Assembly: GCA_039795755.1 (NCBI GenBank) | Contig: JBDKLF010000054.1 | Location: forward strand, 1-30,136 | From: Candidatus Parcubacteria bacterium | GTDB lineage: Bacteria > Patescibacteriota > Minisyncoccia > Phycocordibacterales > CAIZIN01 | Length of the DNA stretch: 30,136 nt | Direction: 5' to 3' | Part shown: positions 2,552 to 12,655 of the stretch, one piece after another | Position numbering within the stretch: position 1 is the stretch's first letter | Layout: each line of letters begins with the position of its first letter | Program-made: the position numbers and the translations under genes | Notes under the pieces: generated by a model | Told to the model about the DNA's origin: nothing | Seen by the model: the letters and a program-made list of their open reading frames with translations, nothing else | Databases searched by the model: none

Positions 2552-3463
2552 ATGGCAAACAGGCACCTTTCACGATCAGTTGTACTCCAAACACTCTTTG
2601 AGTGTGACTTTATGCACCTTGGTCATGATAGTGCCTTAGAATCTCTCGATCGTAATACAAAAGAATTCGCCCCTGAAATGGCAGATGTGCCCTTTATGAA
2701 AGGCATTTTCCAGGGAACACTGGATAAGCAAGCTGACCTCGACAAGATTATTACCAAGGCTGCTCCTGAATGGCCTTTGGAAAAAATTTCAAACGTTGAT
2801 CGTAATGTGCTTCGATTGGGACTCTATGAGCTTTTATTTGCACCACGCAACGAAGTACCACCAAAGGTTGCTATTAATGAAGCGATTGAACTTGCTAAGA
2901 CATTCGGAGGAGAGAATTCAGGAAAGTTTGTAAACGGAGTGTTGGGAGCGGTATACAAAGAAATCGGTGAACCAGGTAAGGCTGATGTCTCAAAAAAGAA
3001 AAAGATTGAAGATATTCCTTATGAGCAAATGCCGATTCAACATCTCGTTGGTGCGATTGTGTATGCATTCTATTGTGATGACGTCTACGTAGCACTCGTT
3101 CATGATGTATTTGGTCATTGGACACTTGCAAAAGGCAAAGTGAAGCCAGAAGAAGCGATTCTCGATGCAGTAGTACGAAAAGTAAAAGAAGAAATCGGTC
3201 TCGATGTAGAAGTTCAAGATGAACTCGGAAATAATGAATACATTGCTTCAGATCCAGAGCTCGGTAAGCTTCGTAAGCAAGTAAATTATTTCCTTACACA
3301 ATCTGAATACAAAGAATTAACACTTGAGAAGAAGGGAGGTCTCGATGATGCTAAATGGTTCAAGCTTTCTGAAATAGTTGACTTGAACCTATATAATGAT
3401 ATTGTGCCCATGTTTACCAAGGCGGTGAATATCCTCCTTGCAAAGAAACAGCCTACAAAATAG
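2552..3463 (+). CDS. nusB: NusB antitermination factor fused to a C-terminal Nudix domain
   Basis: N-terminus RHLSRSVVLQTLFE...DRNVLRLGLYEL...VAINEAIELAKTFGGENSGKFVNGVL (NusB); C-terminus HWTLAKGKVKPEEAILDAVVRKVKEEIGL (Nudix box). Confidence 0.92.
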   Translation: MANRHLSRSVVLQTLFECDFMHLGHDSALESLDRNTKEFAPEMADVPFMKGIFQGTLDKQADLDKIITKAAPEWPLEKISNVDRNVLRLGLYELLFAPRNEVPPKVAINEAIELAKTFGGENSGKFVNGVLGAVYKEIGEPGKADVSKKKKIEDIPYEQMPIQHLVGAIVYAFYCDDVYVALVHDVFGHWTLAKGKVKPEEAILDAVVRKVKEEIGLDVEVQDELGNNEYIASDPELGKLRKQVNYFLTQSEYKELTLEKKGGLDDAKWFKLSEIVDLNLYNDIVPMFTKAVNILLAKKQPTK

Positions 3464-3479
3464 GCACTATTTAACTCAC

Positions 3480-4172
3480 GTGAAAGAATTTCATATATTT
3501 GAAGAAAAAATCAATATTCGATTCAATAATCCTGACCTTTTGGAGCAGGCTTTTGTTCATAGATCATACTTGAATGAGAACAAAGAAGTGAAGCGTGAGC
3601 ACAATGAGCGTCTTGAATTTCTTGGTGATGCAGTACTCGAACTCGTGGTTACACATTTTTTATATGAAAAGTTTCCACAGAAGCCTGAAGGTGAATTAAC
3701 TGCCTTCCGTTCAGCGTTGGTGAATGCGGTGACATTGTCACAAGTTGCTTCGAAGCTTGAGGTAAATGAATACTTGCTCCTTTCAAAAGGTGAAGCAAAG
3801 GATACTGGTCGTGCACGATCATATATTCTCGCTGATGCACTCGAGGCGCTTATTGGAGCAATTTACCTTGATCAAGGATATGATGCTGCCAAGCGATTCA
3901 TCTATGCACATATCACTACACTCCTTGATGAGATTATGGCAAAGGAATTATGGATTGATGCAAAGAGTAAATTCCAAGAAATTGCTCAGGACGAAGTAGG
4001 AATTACTCCGTCGTATAAAGTAGTAAAAGAAACAGGTCCTGATCACGACAAGCATTTCACTGTTGCGGTATGTCTCGGTGCCAAAGAGGTAGCTGAAGGA
4101 ACTGGAAAGAGTAAGCAAGAAGCAGAACAAGAAGCTGCTCGTCAGGCACTCAATCAAGAGAAGTGGAAATAA
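3480..4172 (+). CDS. rnc: Ribonuclease III
   Basis: QAFVHRSY...NERLEFLGDAVL signature, DALEALIGAIYLDQG, C-terminal dsRBD (DAKSKFQE...GPDHDKHF...GKSKQEAEQEAA). In-frame GTG at 3480 preferred over the TTG at 3438 inside nusB. Confidence 0.96.
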   Translation: MKEFHIFEEKINIRFNNPDLLEQAFVHRSYLNENKEVKREHNERLEFLGDAVLELVVTHFLYEKFPQKPEGELTAFRSALVNAVTLSQVASKLEVNEYLLLSKGEAKDTGRARSYILADALEALIGAIYLDQGYDAAKRFIYAHITTLLDEIMAKELWIDAKSKFQEIAQDEVGITPSYKVVKETGPDHDKHFTVAVCLGAKEVAEGTGKSKQEAEQEAARQALNQEKWK

Positions 4173-4196: not shown

Positions 4197-6464
4197 ATGT
4201 ATCTCAAATCGCTAGAAATCAATGGATTCAAGTCTTTTGCAAAGAAAGGCTTACTTGAGTTTACGTCTCCCATATCTGCGATCGTAGGCCCAAATGGATC
4301 TGGTAAGTCCAACGTAGCTGAGTCATTCAGATTTGTACTCGGAGAGCAGTCAATTAAATCGATGCGAGGAAAGAAAGGTGAAGATCTTATCTTTAACGGT
4401 TCTGATGCTGCAGGGAGATTGAATCGAGCGTCAGTGAAATTGGTGTTCGATAATAATCGCCGAATGCTTCCTATTGATTTCGATGAAGTGATGATTGAAC
4501 GACAAGTGGCACGAGATGGAGTAAATGACTACTTCATCAACGGTTCTCCTGTGAGACTCAAAGATATTCAAGAATTATTGTCACATGCACATATAGGAGC
4601 ATCAGGACATCATATCATTTCACAAGGTGAAGCTGATCGAATTCTTTCTTCAAATCTCAAAGAGCGCCGAAGTATGATCGAAGATGCATTGGGACTCAAA
4701 GTATTTCAATATAAGAAAATCGAAAGTCAGAAGAAACTAGAAAAGACCGAAGAGAATATGAAGCAAGTAGAATCATTACGACGTGAGCTTGCTCCACATT
4801 TGAAGTTCTTGAAGAAGCAGGTGGAGAAAATCGAAAAGGCAGTTCAGCTCAAAGAAGAATTACGTACTAAGTTCAAGGAATATCTCAAGCGTGAAGATGA
4901 ATATATCAAAGCCACCAAGACACGGCTGGATACTGAGCTCCTTGCTCCAAAGGCAGAACTTGCAACATTACATACTAAGCTCGAAGCAATTCGTGCGCAG
5001 CTTGCCGCAGCAGGTGCGGAGAATGAGCATAAAGTTGCATTGATTGAAGCAGAATCAAAGATTCAAAAAGCTCGTGGAGAGAAGCAGCAATTGCTTCATG
5101 CAATGGGACGACTCGAAGGAGAAATTGCTTCTATTCGAAGAATGGTTGAGCGCGAAGAACGAAAGGCTCATGAGGCAGACGATACTACTGTGTACCTGCG
5201 TGACGTGGAAGGAATTCTTACTAATGTTGAAGCCACATTGCAGGCAGCGCGTCTCACTGGATTGTTCGATGAATTAGTAAAAGCATGTGATGCAGTCAGT
5301 GGTTCACTCAAGGAATTTATTCAATCTCGCAAAGCAACAGGATCAGTGAGTACTACTGATCATTATGTAGAAGATATTACTAAACTCGATGTAGAAAATA
5401 CTGCACTCAAGGAAAAGTTCGCTGTTGCAGAACAGGCAGAGCAATCATTGGTAGAAGAAATCAAACAGCTCAATCAACGTATTGAAGAATCAAGTAAGGG
5501 AAGTCGCGAAGCTGAACGTGAAATGTACAGTGTGATGTCACGACAAGGAGAAGTGCAGTCACAGATTGCAAAGCTTGAGTCAAAGAAGTATGAGATCTCA
5601 CTTGAAGAAACTGATTTCAAGCGTGAGCTTGGTGAAGCTTGTATGCTTATTGATCGTGATATGGCAACCTATGAATCAGTAGTAATTACTGACCTTGATG
5701 TGCATGAAGATCGAAGTAAGCAACATGAACGACGTCGTGAAGTAGAAAAGATGAAAATCAGATTGGAAGAATTGGGCGGTGGATCATCTGATGAGGTGAT
5801 GAAAGAATTCCGTGAGACAGAAGAGCGAGATGTGTTCCTTGCTCGTGAAATTCTCGATTTACAAGCATCAGGTGAAGCATTGCAAAAGCTTATTAAAGAG
5901 CTTGAAGAAAAAATTGATATTGAATTCAAGAGTGGCATTACCAAGATCAATACTGAATTCCAGAAGTATTTTGAATTACTCTTTGGAGGTGGTAAGGCTG
6001 CACTCAAGGTTGTTCGTGAAGAAAAGCGAAAGAAGAAGGACACTGACCTCGATCTCGATGGTGAGATGGATACTACAGATAGTACTGACGATGAAGAAGG
6101 GTTGCTTGCTCCAGAAGGAATCGATATCAGCGTAGACCTTCCAAAGAAAAAAGTGAAAGCACTCATGATGCTCTCAGGGGGCGAGCGAGCGCTTACTTCT
6201 ATTGCATTACTCTTTGCAATGTCTCAAGTGAACCCACCGCCATTTATCATTCTTGATGAAACAGATGCAGCACTCGATGAAGCAAATTCACGCAAATATG
6301 GTGACATGATCGAGAATCTTGCAAAGTATTCTCAGCTTATTGTGATTACTCACAATCGAGAAACGATGTCTCGTGCAGGAGTACTCTATGGAGTGACTAT
6401 GATGCAAGGTGCTTCGAAGCTCCTCTCAATCAAGCTTGATGAAGCAGTACGAGTAGCGAAGTAG
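4197..6464 (+). CDS. smc: SMC-family ATPase, short (755 aa), hinge not recognisable
   Basis: Walker A GPNGSGKSN, Q-loop IISQG, signature LSGGE, Walker B/D-loop ILDETDAALD, H-loop ITH; two coiled-coil arms; next to rnc as in many bacteria. Confidence 0.88.
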   Translation: MYLKSLEINGFKSFAKKGLLEFTSPISAIVGPNGSGKSNVAESFRFVLGEQSIKSMRGKKGEDLIFNGSDAAGRLNRASVKLVFDNNRRMLPIDFDEVMIERQVARDGVNDYFINGSPVRLKDIQELLSHAHIGASGHHIISQGEADRILSSNLKERRSMIEDALGLKVFQYKKIESQKKLEKTEENMKQVESLRRELAPHLKFLKKQVEKIEKAVQLKEELRTKFKEYLKREDEYIKATKTRLDTELLAPKAELATLHTKLEAIRAQLAAAGAENEHKVALIEAESKIQKARGEKQQLLHAMGRLEGEIASIRRMVEREERKAHEADDTTVYLRDVEGILTNVEATLQAARLTGLFDELVKACDAVSGSLKEFIQSRKATGSVSTTDHYVEDITKLDVENTALKEKFAVAEQAEQSLVEEIKQLNQRIEESSKGSREAEREMYSVMSRQGEVQSQIAKLESKKYEISLEETDFKRELGEACMLIDRDMATYESVVITDLDVHEDRSKQHERRREVEKMKIRLEELGGGSSDEVMKEFRETEERDVFLAREILDLQASGEALQKLIKELEEKIDIEFKSGITKINTEFQKYFELLFGGGKAALKVVREEKRKKKDTDLDLDGEMDTTDSTDDEEGLLAPEGIDISVDLPKKKVKALMMLSGGERALTSIALLFAMSQVNPPPFIILDETDAALDEANSRKYGDMIENLAKYSQLIVITHNRETMSRAGVLYGVTMMQGASKLLSIKLDEAVRVAK

Positions 6465-8494: not shown

Positions 8495-11400
8495 ATGTCA
8501 GAAAAGCAGCAATCTACCATAGAGCAGTTAAAAGCGCATCAGCAAATCAAAACGCCTGAGCAGCTTGCTGCAAAGAAAAAGGAAATGGTAGTGGCTATTC
8601 AGAATGCTACAAGCCCTGAGATTCAAAGAGATGCGGTAAAGCGAGTTTCATGCTATTCGATAGATGATGCGATTGAAATAGTTGAAGCCTTAAAACTTAA
8701 GGACGCTCTAGGTTTCCTTAAAGGGGAAAGTGAATATGTTATGCATCGACACCAGCATTTTTTTAGTGCACTTAGCGATCGAATGGAGTGGTTAGCCAAT
8801 TCATGTTCTGATCCTGATGTGTCTGAAAAAATGGAAAGACAAGCTATTGCTCTTCGTCCGTATTCACAGCTTGGGGACCGCATTCAAGTTGATATTGAGC
8901 CTGAAGTACAGAAAGCAATTGATGAGTATTACTCTGTACTCATATCGCAAAGACCAGGAATCAAGTCACCTAAAACAGAAGACAACAATCATGACTACAG
9001 CAAGGCAGAGCAACAGGCAGTAGATTTCATGCAAACAGCATATGAAACTATTGAGCCACACATGCACGCTTCGGCACTTACAAGATTTTTGAAAAGTCTT
9101 GTTGTAGAAGATACAGATCAGGACCCACGAGAGGTGGATCCTTGGAAAGACAAAAATGTTGAGTTTATAAGTAAAGTATATATAAGCAGAGGATTATTTA
9201 ATCCTTATGGAGCAAAAGTCCCCATTGATATAGCAAAAAATATTGTGCAGTTTGTTCTGCCGCACAAGCAGAATCTCAAACGGTCTAATGAGGAAATTAT
9301 GAATGAGTGGGAAGCTGTTGAGAAGAAGTATCGATATAAGCCACTTGATGCTGTTTATAATGTTCGTCGAACAAAAGTTGAAAAAGATCTCAAAGATCAA
9401 CTGAAGGAAACGCTCGCACGAGAAGGGTATGAAGCAGAGGTGTTTCTTGATCCAGAGAAAAAGGCATACAAAGTAAAACTCAAAGCTGCTCCTGGTGAAT
9501 CAAATGAACAACTTGCAGTGAATTGGCAAGAGCTTAGTAAAATAGAAGAATGGGTGGCATTTAAACCAGGTACTGCTGTGGAGTACAAGACAGAAGGCCC
9601 TCAAGGTGAGGTTATTATGTATAGTTACAAGGATAAGAAGAAAGGTACGGTTCAAGCAATTGCGTCAAAAAAAATCAATGAGGATTTCCCGGAAGAGCCT
9701 ATTATGGCCTTTGACCTCGAAAATAATAAATTTTATTCAAAGGTTGCTGGTGATCAGGAGGTTACAGTAAGAGAACTAACTGGTAATGATTCTGTAATAG
9801 AAAAAGTTTTTAGTATTAAAGGAAACGAGACGATAAAAGAAATGTCCGTAGTAAAAGGAAAATTGTTATGTCTCGTTGGGGTAAAAGGTGGTGGTGAACT
9901 GTTGTATGTTGATGGTAAAACTGCAGATTACTCAGTAGGTCAAGAGAGAATACTTCTCGATAAGAAATTCGATGTAAATAGTCAATTGGTATATGGTCTA
10001 CAGTTTGCAAAGAATTTACAGATGCTCAAAATAAATGGTGTTACGTCTAACCAGCAACAGTTCGATGTTTCTCCAAAGGGGATTGTCGACATTGTTCCAG
10101 TTGGAGATGATGATTTTCTTGCGGTAGGGTACTTAAACAAGAAACCTATCGCTTATACAAAAGACAACCAGTATGACCTTACTTCGATGCAGCAAAGTGA
10201 TAGTAGTAATGGCATCAGATCAGTGTCAGTTTCAGAAGATGGATTTACGGTAATTGCTGATTATTCTGATGGTGAGTACGTTCCGTTTGATAAAAAGAAA
10301 AAACATGAAGTAAAACGTAATTTAGTGGATAAAAAGGATTTTGGTGAGATTTCGCTCACTGCGTCAAATAATGGAGGTGAAACAGTTCTTGGATTTTCTA
10401 TAGATAAAGGACCTTCAAGTGAATTTACTTTTCCAAATAAAAGTCATTTATATGATTCTGTAAAGATGGTAAATGGTACCCCTTTACTCACGGTAAAGTT
10501 AAAAAACGTTGGTGCGTACGCGATTGTACCACTTTATGAATTTAGACAGGGTGGTAAATATGAAATAAAAATCGAAAGTCCGCGTGCCATCTTTTCATCA
10601 TCTTACCCACAGGTGCTTGATCAGCAAGACAGAGTTGTTGTGGTAATTGAAGAACATGGAGTGCTTCGTACCCATGAATGGAAAAAAGAAGCTAAAGAAA
10701 AAGTAGTTGAAGGTGACGAAGAGGTTGTATTGGATGTAAGTGAACTTTCAAGGATACTAGATCAAAGATCACTTCGCCCAATAGATATGCTCAATGCGAT
10801 AGAACGTGCAGAGGTGGATGAAATGAAAGAATTTGGAAAGGAATATCGAACTGCAACAAAAGAATCAAAAGATCATTCAAGTGTTCTTGCTCAGTCAAAG
10901 GCATTTATTTTTTCTTTGAATCGAATGCTTAAATCTGATCCACAATTATTTCTTGATTCGGTGGTAGCAAAAACTGACAGAACAGATAATCCGTATCTCG
11001 ATAGTATTATTCGTAAGCTTGTACCTGAATACAAAGCAGAAGAAAAAGCAAAAGAAAACGGTCTGATTAAGTATGCTCGCCTGTTAATTGGAGCACTTGG
11101 ACTATACAGACCATCTCCAAAAGATTATTTCGGCGTACTCCATAAAAGAGACATGTTGGGTGGTGATCCATCAGAAGGGAACAAAGAGAGGTTGTTTTCG
11201 GTACAAGGAGATGAGACGGGGGGAATATATCTTACCTCAACATATTTTGGTTTTGATAATAAGTCGGGAATGTTTAGCCAGCTTGCTGTTCCTATAGATA
11301 ATACACCAACTGGCCCAACAACAGAGTTGACCGGTGAAATACTTCTTGGTTCACATATAGGAAGCACTACACTGCTCCCACAGCGAATGGGTGCGGCAAT

Positions 11401-12655
11401 TATTCCTGAACGTGTAAAGATTGTATATAAAGATGGTAGAGAAGAAAGAATTCCAGTTGAACAGAGCGAAGATGGTCAGTATTTTGTACGGATTAATTAC
11501 GATAAGAAAATGAAATCACTTGTATGGAGTCAGGAGGTTCCCGATGCTCCATATGTACCTTCTAATATTTCTGAAGATGAGTATGCAAAAACTGTCAAAA
11601 AAATACTCCCAACAGAAAAAGAGAATCAAGAAAAATTCAAACGTTTACTTGAGGATCCGATAGTGGCACTTCCTGCTGAAGAAATGTTTTTTGTTCAAAG
11701 TATCAAGGATATGTCTCCAAAAGAAAAGTTATATGCCATTGAAGCTTATGTTCACTCTGTGTGTTATTACGATTGGGATAATGGTGAGGTGAAAGATAAG
11801 AAAGAGGGACTCACACCACAAGAGCAGCTTTCGTTCATGCAAGTAAGGTGCAAAGAATTGGCAGAAAAGAATAAGACACTCGCCGTAAGTAATAAACGCT
11901 ATGCAGGAGTATGTGCTGACTTTGGAGTACTCACTACTGCACTAATGAGAAGTGCTAGTCTTGTGGCTGGTGTTGGTACCGGTGCAGTCGTCCGTGATGG
12001 GGTTGCCACAGTGGCTCAAGCACATGCCGTTTCTGTAACACCTTGGCCAGAGGGTTCAAGTTTCAAACTTACGTATATTGATGGAACACCAACTATTGGT
12101 CTTACTGAAGAAGAAACCAAGAAGCTTGCTGCAATACGATTTCCAACTCTAAGAGAACGTGAAAAGATGATTGAACAGGTTGAAGAGAAATATAAAGTAG
12201 ATTCTGAACGAATGATAAAAGAATTAGAAGAGAGGCTTGAAGCAGGAGAAGACTTTGCGATTGAAGAGCTACAGAATGGAGAACTTGAAAAGATGCTCAA
12301 TGTAGTGCTCAAGTATGAAATTGAGCCACAACATACACAGGTGATTGAAGGGCTTCTTAACGCGGTGCGATACAGTGGTTTACCTGTATTTTCTGAAGAA
12401 ATTGACAATCAGATTGTTGTCAAAAGATTCCTTGAAGCTGAGATCAAACGTGAGCGAAGTACAAGTATTCAAGTGTCTCCAAGTACTGATTCAGGAACAC
12501 ATCTCTTTGATATTTCAAGAGAATATGTGAGTCAGGATGGTATTAATAATCTTAGTAAAGTGATTAAGCTGGTAGAACCACACTTGCAAAAGACAGAACG
12601 CCGAGCACTCATGCTTCTGGTTAAATATCTCAAAGCTGAAAAGATGAAGCGATAG
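8495..12655 (+). CDS. Large multidomain protein with a C-terminal transglutaminase-like (Cys-His-Asp) domain
   Basis: YAGVC(1140)ADF...AH(1177)AV...ID(1196)GTP follows the transglutaminase-like order; beta-rich central part; no obvious signal peptide. Confidence 0.8.
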   Translation: MSEKQQSTIEQLKAHQQIKTPEQLAAKKKEMVVAIQNATSPEIQRDAVKRVSCYSIDDAIEIVEALKLKDALGFLKGESEYVMHRHQHFFSALSDRMEWLANSCSDPDVSEKMERQAIALRPYSQLGDRIQVDIEPEVQKAIDEYYSVLISQRPGIKSPKTEDNNHDYSKAEQQAVDFMQTAYETIEPHMHASALTRFLKSLVVEDTDQDPREVDPWKDKNVEFISKVYISRGLFNPYGAKVPIDIAKNIVQFVLPHKQNLKRSNEEIMNEWEAVEKKYRYKPLDAVYNVRRTKVEKDLKDQLKETLAREGYEAEVFLDPEKKAYKVKLKAAPGESNEQLAVNWQELSKIEEWVAFKPGTAVEYKTEGPQGEVIMYSYKDKKKGTVQAIASKKINEDFPEEPIMAFDLENNKFYSKVAGDQEVTVRELTGNDSVIEKVFSIKGNETIKEMSVVKGKLLCLVGVKGGGELLYVDGKTADYSVGQERILLDKKFDVNSQLVYGLQFAKNLQMLKINGVTSNQQQFDVSPKGIVDIVPVGDDDFLAVGYLNKKPIAYTKDNQYDLTSMQQSDSSNGIRSVSVSEDGFTVIADYSDGEYVPFDKKKKHEVKRNLVDKKDFGEISLTASNNGGETVLGFSIDKGPSSEFTFPNKSHLYDSVKMVNGTPLLTVKLKNVGAYAIVPLYEFRQGGKYEIKIESPRAIFSSSYPQVLDQQDRVVVVIEEHGVLRTHEWKKEAKEKVVEGDEEVVLDVSELSRILDQRSLRPIDMLNAIERAEVDEMKEFGKEYRTATKESKDHSSVLAQSKAFIFSLNRMLKSDPQLFLDSVVAKTDRTDNPYLDSIIRKLVPEYKAEEKAKENGLIKYARLLIGALGLYRPSPKDYFGVLHKRDMLGGDPSEGNKERLFSVQGDETGGIYLTSTYFGFDNKSGMFSQLAVPIDNTPTGPTTELTGEILLGSHIGSTTLLPQRMGAAIIPERVKIVYKDGREERIPVEQSEDGQYFVRINYDKKMKSLVWSQEVPDAPYVPSNISEDEYAKTVKKILPTEKENQEKFKRLLEDPIVALPAEEMFFVQSIKDMSPKEKLYAIEAYVHSVCYYDWDNGEVKDKKEGLTPQEQLSFMQVRCKELAEKNKTLAVSNKRYAGVCADFGVLTTALMRSASLVAGVGTGAVVRDGVATVAQAHAVSVTPWPEGSSFKLTYIDGTPTIGLTEEETKKLAAIRFPTLREREKMIEQVEEKYKVDSERMIKELEERLEAGEDFAIEELQNGELEKMLNVVLKYEIEPQHTQVIEGLLNAVRYSGLPVFSEEIDNQIVVKRFLEAEIKRERSTSIQVSPSTDSGTHLFDISREYVSQDGINNLSKVIKLVEPHLQKTERRALMLLVKYLKAEKMKR

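Follow-up and report, generated by a model that had tools for sequence, protein, structure and literature searches.

What is left of an SMC protein that has no hinge, and what would hold two copies of it together, are the questions raised by a gene on the forward strand of contig JBDKLF010000054.1 of a Candidatus Parcubacteria bacterium (assembly GCA_039795755.1), within the 30,136-nt stretch analyzed here (the window). By textbook definition an SMC protein has a hinge, which is credited with dimerization, DNA binding, and DNA entry and is usually treated as indispensable. The initial annotation had read the 755-aa product as an SMC with intact ATPase heads, no recognizable hinge, and a different mode of dimerization. 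Rfam and tRNA scans of the window gave no matches.

The identity of the protein can be settled from its heads and its genomic neighborhood. The open reading frame and its length were confirmed, and every head motif was located as reported, i.e., Walker A (GPNGSGKS, aa 31 to 38), Q-loop (SQG, aa 142 to 144), signature (LSGGE, aa 659 to 663), Walker B (FIILDE, aa 683 to 688), D-loop (aa 687 to 694), and H-loop (ITH, aa 717 to 719), all of them invariant or nearly so across 150 relatives (Table 1). The bacterial Smc model TIGR02168 scored 530.6 bits, about 10 times the score of any other family; the curated cutoff of 567.35 bits is not reached because 519 model positions are unmatched. Pfam SMC_N gave 220 bits, and the best solved relative was the Bacillus subtilis Smc head (PDB 5xg3, E = 3e-90). 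Three other identities were rejected: RecN (TIGR00634, 48.6 bits versus a cutoff of 407.85), Rad50/SbcC (NF003034, 51.9 bits versus a cutoff of 700, with no SbcD partner found in the 81%-complete genome), and the archaea-specific SMC-related proteins (NF045487, 50.7 bits versus a cutoff of 300). The smc start lies 24 nt from the end of rnc, in the conserved rnc-smc gene order. The assignment of the heads to Smc and not to RecN/SbcC is borne out by these scores, by the match to 5xg3, and by the upstream rnc; judging from its sequence, the gene appears to be the ordinary chromosome-organizing Smc of a Patescibacteria genome, orthologous and single.

Table 1. Features of the smc locus, in window positions, with the residues of the 755-aa protein
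Feature	Residues (aa)	Positions (nt)	Strand	Basis
rnc (RNase III), directly 5' of smc		3438..4172	+	Pfam Ribonucleas_3_3 (5.5e-41) and dsrm
smc, hinge-less and short-armed, 755 aa		4197..6464	+	Pfam, NCBIfam, PDB-relative, and model-alignment matches
N-terminal head half (Walker A, nt 4287-4310; Q-loop)	1-167	4197..4697	+	5xg3 match, motif conservation
N-terminal arm helix (helices 168-271, 274-328)	168-328	4698..5180	+	AlphaFold2, block pLDDT mostly 78-93
Family-specific motif [LI]-G-[RK]-[LI]-E-G	303-308	5103..5120	+	Conservation in 150 relatives, dimer model
Tip in the hinge's place (loop, helix 334-354, turn, helix 357-378, loop)	329-383	5181..5345	+	AlphaFold2, TIGR02168 alignment, hinge searches
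C-terminal arm strand	384-596	5346..5984	+	AlphaFold2
Interrupted C-strand (helix 487-494, loop, helix 506-526, loop)	485-530	5649..5786	+	AlphaFold2 and TIGR02168 offsets
C-terminal head half (signature, nt 6171-6185; Walker B, nt 6243-6260; H-loop)	597-755	5985..6461	+	5xg3 match, motif conservation
Charged C-head insertion	610-637	6024..6107	+	pLDDT <50 at 612-637; gap versus 5xg3; net charge -8

The hinge is missing from this Smc. In the TIGR02168 alignment, aa 2 to 334 correspond to model positions 1 to 328 and aa 393 to 747 to positions 848 to 1181, so that about 58 residues stand in for 519 model positions, which cover the hinge and some 170 residues of each arm. The G-x6-G-x3-GG motif is absent, as had been noted for the middle segment, and a zinc hook is ruled out by the lack of a C-x-x-C, the only cysteines of the protein being C364 and C482. 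Pfam SMC_hinge (PF06470) did not match the protein, as anticipated in the initial annotation, nor did it match any of ten family tips even at E ≤ 10; searches for a hinge in six frames of the organism's own genome and in five fully complete genomes from its order found none. In the AlphaFold2 model, the segment is an all-helical hairpin of two helices flanked by loops at aa 329 to 333 and 379 to 383, with zero beta strands, and hhalign gave only 1.3% probability for the tip profile against a hinge profile built from hinge-bearing Patescibacteria Smc proteins. All this argues against a divergent hinge in the middle segment. Given the position of the loops and the size of the replacement, the connector of about 65 residues (aa 326 to 390) first proposed was correct to within a few residues.

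Beyond the apex, the AlphaFold2 model, in which the heads are predicted with poor confidence (mean pLDDT 74), shows a coiled coil that is antiparallel and has a joint pattern close to the head, with arms of about half the usual length. Arm length was estimated at about 170 aa when measured to the break and at about 195 aa when measured to the apex, with no clean fit to the published modes of 163 and 238 aa. In B. subtilis Smc, the joint has been defined at residues 922 to 1011 (PMC5526789); the interrupted part of the C-terminal strand fits the joint in position and pattern, and in the model the two would be equivalent. The C-head insertion consists of a basic stretch followed by a strongly acidic one, is predicted to be disordered, and is absent from B. 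subtilis Smc, the 5xg3 alignment blocks (517-605 and 637-750) leaving a gap over it.

The hinge-less form is widespread and conserved in Patescibacteria. More than 8,000 homologues were scored; length and architecture are shared by at least 150 clusters formed at 50% identity, and the best 150 cluster representatives are uniformly short (643 to 782 aa). Of 220 family members in which the distance between conserved head anchors was measured, about 210 have a spacing of 400 to 440 residues. Such uniformity of length and spacing indicates that the short form is not an effect of chance or assembly. In a sample of 301 genomes of the phylum, just 6 of the 118 that carry Smc retain the Pfam hinge. 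In 5 of 265 close relatives, the glycine motif described below is kept and the hairpin is swapped for a short CxxC loop; these sequences are nested inside the same clan of an unrooted head tree of Patescibacteria sequences. The swap identifies the apex as an exchangeable module. One alternative, the CxxC loop, shares its two-cysteine pattern with a known dimerization device.

Across the 150 relatives, tip length is tightly kept (54.0 ± 3.4 aa); the sequence is poorly conserved, the hydrophobic pattern alone being retained. This pattern forms a broad stripe (positions 332, 337, 340/341, 344, 348, 357, 360, 363/364, 367, 371, and 374/375), and mostly hydrophobic positions make up about 31% of the tip helices versus 16 to 19% of the arms. 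With a mean net charge of -1.8, the tip is slightly acidic and therefore cannot stand in for the basic surface with which a hinge binds DNA. In the N-terminal arm helix, two glycines of the family-specific motif are nearly invariant, G304 being found in 129 and G308 in 131 of the 150 relatives. Both occupy outer, solvent-exposed heptad positions (b and f), where a two-stranded coil standing alone would not readily account for such conservation. The motif is present in 187 of 265 family members and in 1 of 112 hinge-bearing Smc proteins; all other hinge-less classes sampled lack it.

A homodimer model of aa 262 to 445 reached an ipSAE of 0.47, versus 0.01 for the best of three controls (range, 0.00 to 0.01). 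This is just above the tool's mark of 0.42, which in calibration was reached by 20 of 30 proteins with structures solved as pairs and by 1 of 23 with structures solved as single chains; up to 19 of 100 single chains may reach it. The calibration is only roughly valid for this score because the model was run on an alignment of our own, and solved Smc/Rad50 rods could bias the model toward side-by-side arms. The three runs agreed in at least 95% of contacts, with a partner pLDDT of at least 79. The predicted contacts are two-fold symmetric (304-304, 308-308, 331/332, 337, 357, 360, and 364), the model placing the Gly-x-x-x-Gly motif on the two-fold axis. The different dimerization mode proposed in the initial annotation gains support from this passing model and from the sequence arguments, dimerization itself being what we infer from them; the tip would then be a replacement dimerization module.

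The remaining components of a Smc complex are encoded elsewhere in the genome. The initial annotation had pointed out that no scpA or scpB lies in the window, which is correct for the window and does not extend to the genome, where both genes are found adjacent to each other on contig C32 (ScpA, 67 bits; ScpB, 127 bits); parB is on contig C64 (ParB_N, 98 bits). One palindromic parS-like site, AGTTTCACGTGAAACT, differs from the consensus by 1 mismatch, with about 0.06 such sites expected by chance by our own estimate; control patterns yielded comparable numbers when up to 2 mismatches were allowed. The assembly is a bin broken into 73 contigs and is 81% complete; a second, partial smc copy (91% identity) is carried by a 3.1-kb contig. 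Searches of this 81%-complete genome for RecN and for SbcD (TIGR00619) were negative, the only weak recN matches being smc and its partial second copy. Across the phylum, Smc and ScpB are kept or lost together: among the 301 genomes, 118 have Smc and 120 have ScpB, the two counts coincide in the 30 families that were listed one by one, and a manual comparison of the lists places the two together in 117 of the 121 genomes with either, just one being present in the other 4.

We consider it likely that the protein is a single orthologous Smc working with ScpA, ScpB, and probably ParB/parS, in which hinge and outer arms were symmetrically deleted and a helical hairpin cap serves as the dimer contact. 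The kept core would comprise the ATPase head, neck, joint, and about 100 residues of coiled coil per strand distal to the joint. Symmetrical deletion would have removed the hinge together with the outer half of each arm, leaving a shortened arm capped by the 55-residue hairpin. Two hairpins may come together in parallel orientation as a four-helix bundle, which would be prolonged where the N-terminal arm helices meet closely at the conserved Gly-x-x-x-Gly, and bundle and glycine contact together would provide the constitutive dimer contact that normally comes from the hinge. The outcome would be a rod or ring of about 28 nm, compared with 47 to 49 nm, the ring still being closed through heads and kleisin. 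We infer a ring topology, and loop extrusion or DNA entrapment, for such a hinge-less Smc. A further proposal, in our view rather unlikely, is that of a core-only motor, in which head, neck, joint, and one short coil, closed by a plain helical or CxxC apex, would be enough for Smc-ScpAB to do its essential work, hinge and outer arms being accessory, e.g., for obstacle bypass; in its strongest form, the weak non-covalent tip bundle would open as a DNA gate, or there would be no topological entrapment.

Among the alternatives to a dimerizing tip, it seems unlikely that the hairpin merely caps the coiled coil, the pair being held together solely by the ATP-engaged heads and by a ScpA bridge between neck and cap, with a kleisin compartment and no closed Smc compartment, hence a clamp and not a ring. 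A variable, net acidic tip would suit this arrangement, as would a dimer score near a mark that up to 19 of 100 single chains may reach, but the near-invariant glycines at exposed b/f positions, the broad hydrophobic stripe on the tip helices, the tightly kept tip length, the swap of the hairpin for a CxxC loop in relatives, and dimer-model controls of just 0.00 to 0.01 argue against it. We think it improbable that the tip is a shrunken hinge remnant, homologous to the first helix-strand-helix of the hinge and no new module at all. One MAFFT alignment does pair G-R-L-E-G with the glycine-rich hinge start of a hinge-bearing relative, a superficial pairwise similarity, and the hinge-bearing short Smc P0271, with an anchor distance of 540, would on subtraction of a hinge of about 170 residues have arms about equal to those of the 755-aa Smc. 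The motif, however, is located inside a long, confidently predicted helix, the tip has no beta strand, TIGR02168 assigns the motif region to arm positions ~298 to 302 and not to the hinge, the hhalign probability is 1.3%, and the Pfam search of ten tips gave no hinge match.

A shift to a repair role, with loss of chromosome organization, would make the protein a counterpart of the short-armed, hinge-less RecN or Rad50/SbcC, whose architecture it resembles and neither of which (as RecN or SbcD) was found in the 81%-complete genome. We hold this to be very improbable in view of the ten-fold score margin of the Smc heads, the kept rnc-smc synteny, the strict co-occurrence of Smc and ScpB in 301 genomes, the presence of ScpA and ParB, and the failure to find a nuclease partner in that 81%-complete genome. 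There is hardly any likelihood that the gene is an artifact, i.e., a misassembly or a pseudogene that has suffered an internal deletion; the fragmented 73-contig bin and the partial second copy might suggest as much, but the frame is open, more than 8,000 homologues were scored, and the same length and architecture recur in at least 150 clusters at 50% identity.

The preferred reading, a hinge-deleted Smc with a dimerizing hairpin, can be set against known SMC systems. With bacterial Smc-ScpAB of the B. subtilis type (TIGR02168; PDB 5xg3, 3zgx) the protein shares the orthologous head, ATPase motifs, neck/joint pattern, rnc-smc order, and the ScpA, ScpB, and ParB in its genome; it differs in having no hinge, about 170 fewer residues per arm strand, a 55-residue hairpin apex, the Gly-x-x-x-Gly arm motif, and a charged C-head insertion of about 25 residues. 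B. subtilis Smc is reported to remain functional when a Rad50 zinc hook replaces the hinge, and some shortened arms work too (PMC5344682). The Mini-Smc and Smc(Zh) chimera of that study (Burmann et al. 2017) resemble the natural protein in their shortened arms and in an unrelated small dimerization module in place of the hinge, respectively, but Mini-Smc keeps its hinge, Smc(Zh) has a zinc hook where the present protein has a helical hairpin (a CxxC loop in 5 of 265 relatives), and both are laboratory constructs, whereas the 755-aa form is natural and fixed in a large clade. Rad50/SbcC likewise has an ABC head, an antiparallel coiled coil, and at its apex a very small element for dimerization, and some relatives of our protein have an apical CxxC; the 755-aa Smc itself has no CxxC, and its partners are ScpAB, not a nuclease. 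RecN, also a short SMC-like protein without a hinge, dimerizes via the end of its coiled coil. It differs from the 755-aa Smc in gene context and partners, and in the dimer model of the latter the chains run parallel next to each other instead of meeting end to end.

A full-text literature search found no paper describing a hinge-less Smc in Patescibacteria. The nearest was an ocean-metagenome cluster of "hinge-less SMC" that its authors consider a new kind of SMC and place near the class Actinomycetes (Sussfeld et al. 2025, PMC12153180). Compared by description only, it has SMC heads, an antiparallel coil, and neither hinge nor CxxC, like the protein studied here; it differs in its Actinomycetes-near assignment, and partners and dimer contact were not part of that study. 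The hinge channel, a proposed bypass gate for tethered obstacles, is absent in MukBEF, Wadjet II/III, and Acetobacter Smc, and channel-less SMCs tend to have longer arms, which the authors read as compensation for the missing channel (PMC12647877). The 755-aa Smc also has no hinge channel but goes in the opposite direction: those complexes keep a hinge domain and tend toward longer arms, whereas here there is no hinge and the arms are shorter. A hinge-less, short-armed Smc goes against this published trend.

Overall, the data reveal a natural minimal version of the Smc machine, with no hinge, a short helical tip, and arms of about half length. At 755 aa and with a rod of about 28 nm, it would make an attractive object for structural and single-molecule work, and the glycine motif and the hairpin/CxxC exchange offer direct handles for mutagenesis. 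It also lets one ask, in a naturally occurring system, which parts of an SMC are required for loading, for translocation, and for closing the ring. The results point to a whole bacterial radiation, the ultra-small Patescibacteria, in which Smc-ScpAB operates with half-length arms and no hinge, the kleisin and kite partners being strictly retained along with Smc.

Translation of the smc ORF yielded 755 residues with heads of the Smc rather than the RecN/SbcC type. The bacterial Smc model TIGR02168 ranked top among the NCBIfam profiles (530.6 bits), followed by an archaeal-type Smc model (288 bits), as against 51.9 bits for Rad50, 50.7 for an archaea-specific SMC-related family, and 48.6 for RecN; Pfam SMC_N matched residues 2-738 with 220 bits. 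The closest solved structures were the Smc heads of Bacillus subtilis and relatives (E 3e-90), with Rad50 far behind (about 1e-11). The full set of Smc head motifs was located and found to be invariant or nearly so across 150 relatives, in agreement with the intact heads reported in the initial annotation. In a search of the genome, residues 2-334 aligned with TIGR02168 positions 1-328 and residues 393-747 with positions 848-1181, about 58 residues standing in for 519 model positions. The hinge has been lost together with about 170 residues per arm strand, a deletion that is near-symmetric between the strands. The C-head carries a charged insertion that B. subtilis Smc does not have, and a charged stretch is also visible at this site in the 40-sequence family consensus.

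Positions of features of the smc gene, its product, and related loci (window coordinates, except for contigs C47 and C72 of the source genome, G000)
Feature	Nucleotides (strand)	Residues	Remarks
NusB-NUDIX fusion ORF	2552-3463 (+)	NusB 7-136; NUDIX hydrolase 186-282	26-nt overlap with rnc start
smc	4197-6464 (+)	755 aa
N-strand		helices 168-271, 274-328	AlphaFold2 model
Glycine motif		303-308	[LI]-G-[RK]-[LI]-E-G
Tip (apex)		loop 329-333; helices 334-354, 357-378; loop 379-383	AlphaFold2 model
C-strand		helices 384-431, 437-484; interrupted 485-530; helix 531-596	AlphaFold2 model
C-head insertion	6024-6107	610-637	basic then acidic; predicted disordered
1386-aa ORF	8495-12655 (+)		no Pfam match at E<=0.001; flanked by RNase R and rpsP
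Partial second smc (P0003)	G000:C47:184-1704	576 aa	91% identical; 3.1-kb contig
parS-like perfect palindrome	G000:C72:2210-2225		AGTTTCACGTGAAACT; one mismatch from parS consensus

The canonical hinge is a mixed alpha/beta domain of about 170 residues. An AlphaFold2 model built from a 40-sequence alignment, with pLDDT averaging 74 overall and mostly 78-93 in the coiled-coil blocks, shows no beta strand between the heads, and the apex is a 55-residue helical hairpin, therefore not such a domain. A divergent hinge, which the initial annotation had considered as an alternative, is likewise not what the searches point to: the 755-aa protein has no Pfam SMC_hinge match and neither a G-x6-G-x3-GG motif nor a CxxC, ten tips sampled across the family gave no SMC_hinge match even at E<=10, and hhalign of the tip profile against a profile of 57 hinge-bearing Patescibacteria Smc (gathered with the relative P0271) returned a probability of 1.3%. 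The hinge HMM search was thus as empty as predicted, and the description of a protein with neither hinge nor zinc hook is correct. No hinge domain is encoded elsewhere in the 81%-complete assembly, which rules out a split hinge within the assembled part. By position and pattern, and judging from model offsets, the interrupted portion of the C-strand would correspond to the Smc joint (residues 922-1011 in B. subtilis; PMC5526789).

The short form is common to the relatives. A word-indexed search scored 8000 candidates, every one at E<=1e-10, the best 120 of which measure 735-793 aa save for one contig-end fragment; an exhaustive search of 50%-identity representatives gave, among the best 150 matches, lengths of 643-782 aa and identities of 42-55%. 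Among relatives reaching 690 aa or more, 265 in all, the median length is 752 aa (5-95% range, 721-770). The spacing of two conserved head anchors, measured in 220 family members, is 400-440 residues in about 210 of them; so narrow a range speaks for selection on arm length. Close homologues come from sources named Patescibacteria or Paceibacterota, which puts the genome in that group. The hinge-less, half-length Smc is a real, conserved, and widespread form, a variant that fails one family-defining feature and retains all others.

Across 301 genomes of the phylum, all 70% complete or better and 255 of them 90% or better, Smc was detected in 118 (TIGR02168, E<=1e-20) and ScpB in 120, tallies that take in one unpublished genome, G153, on which nothing else here depends. 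A Pfam hinge above cut-off was present in 6 genomes from two families, and one further genome had a weak match, off its smc contig. Of the 118 genomes with Smc, about 112 have no detectable hinge (open frames of about 670 to 1105 aa), among them all five genomes of the same order, each scored 100% complete, where Smc and ScpB are both present. Smc and ScpB tallies were identical in each of the 30 families listed individually; manual comparison of the lists gave 117 genomes with both, 1 with Smc only, 3 with ScpB only, and about 180 with neither. Retention or loss of Smc therefore goes along with that of its kite partner, which argues that the hinge-less proteins still work as Smc-ScpAB. Most genomes with neither are at least 90% complete, and absence is clean per family (e.g., 0/15, 0/14, and 0/7 versus 9/9 and 10/10), such that entire Patescibacteria lineages seem to do without Smc-ScpAB.

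The hinge-bearing Patescibacteria Smc come from sources with names such as Magasanikbacteria. In an unrooted head tree without outgroup, the family of the 755-aa protein forms one clan (support 100/100) and the hinge-bearing Smc a separate one (100/100), the latter among other hinge-less classes. Some hinge-bearing proteins of the Magasanikbacteria type (P0271 at locus L015, genome G018, and relatives) measure no more than about 870-890 aa. The head anchors of these proteins lie 540 residues apart; once about 170 are set aside for the hinge, the arms come out roughly as short as those of the hinge-less family. With short arms and yet a hinge, they indicate that arm shortening and hinge loss are separable events.

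Four lines point to the apex as the dimer contact. A homodimer model of residues 262-445 (150-row alignment) scored an ipSAE of 0.47, whereas none of three controls exceeded 0.01; in the calibration of the tool this mark was reached by 20 of 30 solved pairs and 1 of 23 solved single chains, counts that are only a rough guide because our own alignment was used. Three runs agreed in at least 95% of contacts with partner pLDDT of at least 79, albeit with a possible bias from solved SMC and Rad50 rods. The modeled interface is parallel and two-fold symmetric, with self-contacts at 304, 308, 312, 331-332, 337, 357, 360, and 364. It includes the glycine motif, the best-conserved element of the arm, in which G304 and G308 are conserved in 129 and 131 of 150 sequences, as are R301, R305, and E307. 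With hydrophobic a/d positions at 303, 306, 310, and 313, both glycines fall at b and f, on the outer face of the two-stranded coil. Exposed conserved glycines one turn apart are a classic mark of tight helix-helix crossing; a lone arm would give little reason for such conservation, and the motif looks like a helix-helix contact. Of 265 family members 187 have it, compared with a single one of 112 hinge-bearing Smc; the other hinge-less classes, as far as sampled, lack it.

The tip, 54.0 +/- 3.4 residues long in 150 relatives, has about 31% mostly hydrophobic positions versus 16-19% in the arms, V332, V337, and F374 being hydrophobic in 90-100% of sequences. A broad hydrophobic stripe is expected of a four-helix bundle, which the tip helices resemble in sequence. 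In 5 of the 265 relatives (P0143, P0157, P0166, P0167, and P0229; 693-719 aa) the glycine motif is kept and the hairpin replaced by a short C-x-x-C loop, e.g., S-C-P-V-C-G-Q, the two-cysteine pattern seen in the hook by which Rad50 is known to dimerise. The four that could be placed in the tree are nested inside the same clan and require one to three switches, in what looks like a natural hook-for-hairpin swap of an exchangeable apex. The basic face of the hinge is credited with binding DNA, a role that the tip, being slightly acidic (mean net charge, -1.8), cannot take over. The different dimerisation mode proposed in the initial annotation stands as a well-supported prediction; the underlying observation is confirmed.

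The partner genes lie outside the window, which covers housekeeping genes of a small bacterial chromosome; no RNA genes were found in it. Its gene order is solute-binding protein, NusB-NUDIX fusion, rnc, smc, RNase R (opposite strand to smc), 1386-aa ORF, rpsP, KH protein, trmD, EamA transporter, short-chain dehydrogenase, PD-(D/E)XK nuclease, rpoB, rpoC, dnaG, rpoD, and UvrD-type helicase. The initial annotation was right that scpA and scpB are missing here, but the genome has both, adjacent on contig C32 (243 and 182 aa) and exceeding Pfam cut-offs; parB is on C64. The single parS-like palindrome, for which we estimate a chance expectation of about 0.06, is only suggestive as a candidate loading site. 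Neither RecN nor SbcD was found in the 81%-complete assembly (663,578 bases, 73 contigs, 2.6% contamination). The partial second smc is most likely the copy of another strain in the bin, rather than a paralogue.

By homology, and beyond the identity of the parts, a four-helix bundle and the glycine contact would hold two protomers together constitutively at the apex, giving a short rod of about 28 nm (our figure, taking about 0.148 nm for each of the 188 residues from 168 to 355), compared to a published 47-49 nm for B. subtilis Smc. The heads would be engaged by ATP, ScpA, carrying ScpB, would connect neck and cap, and loading of the complex at parS would fall to ParB.

No description of hinge-less Smc in Patescibacteria was found in the full-text literature searched. 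Ocean metagenomes have yielded a hinge-less SMC cluster that is similar by description (Sussfeld et al. 2025; PMC12153180); it was placed near Actinomycetes and reported without partner or dimer-contact analysis. The hinge has been proposed as a gate to bypass tethered obstacles, and arms tend to be longer in SMCs without a hinge channel (PMC12647877); here the hinge is gone and the arms are shorter, the opposite direction. Hinge-bearing Smc arms have length modes of 163, 238, 341, 423, and 515 residues, some shortened arms work, and an Smc with a Rad50 zinc hook replacing the hinge is described as functional (Burmann et al. 2017; PMC5344682). The hinge-less Patescibacteria family seems to combine in nature what these two manipulations did separately.
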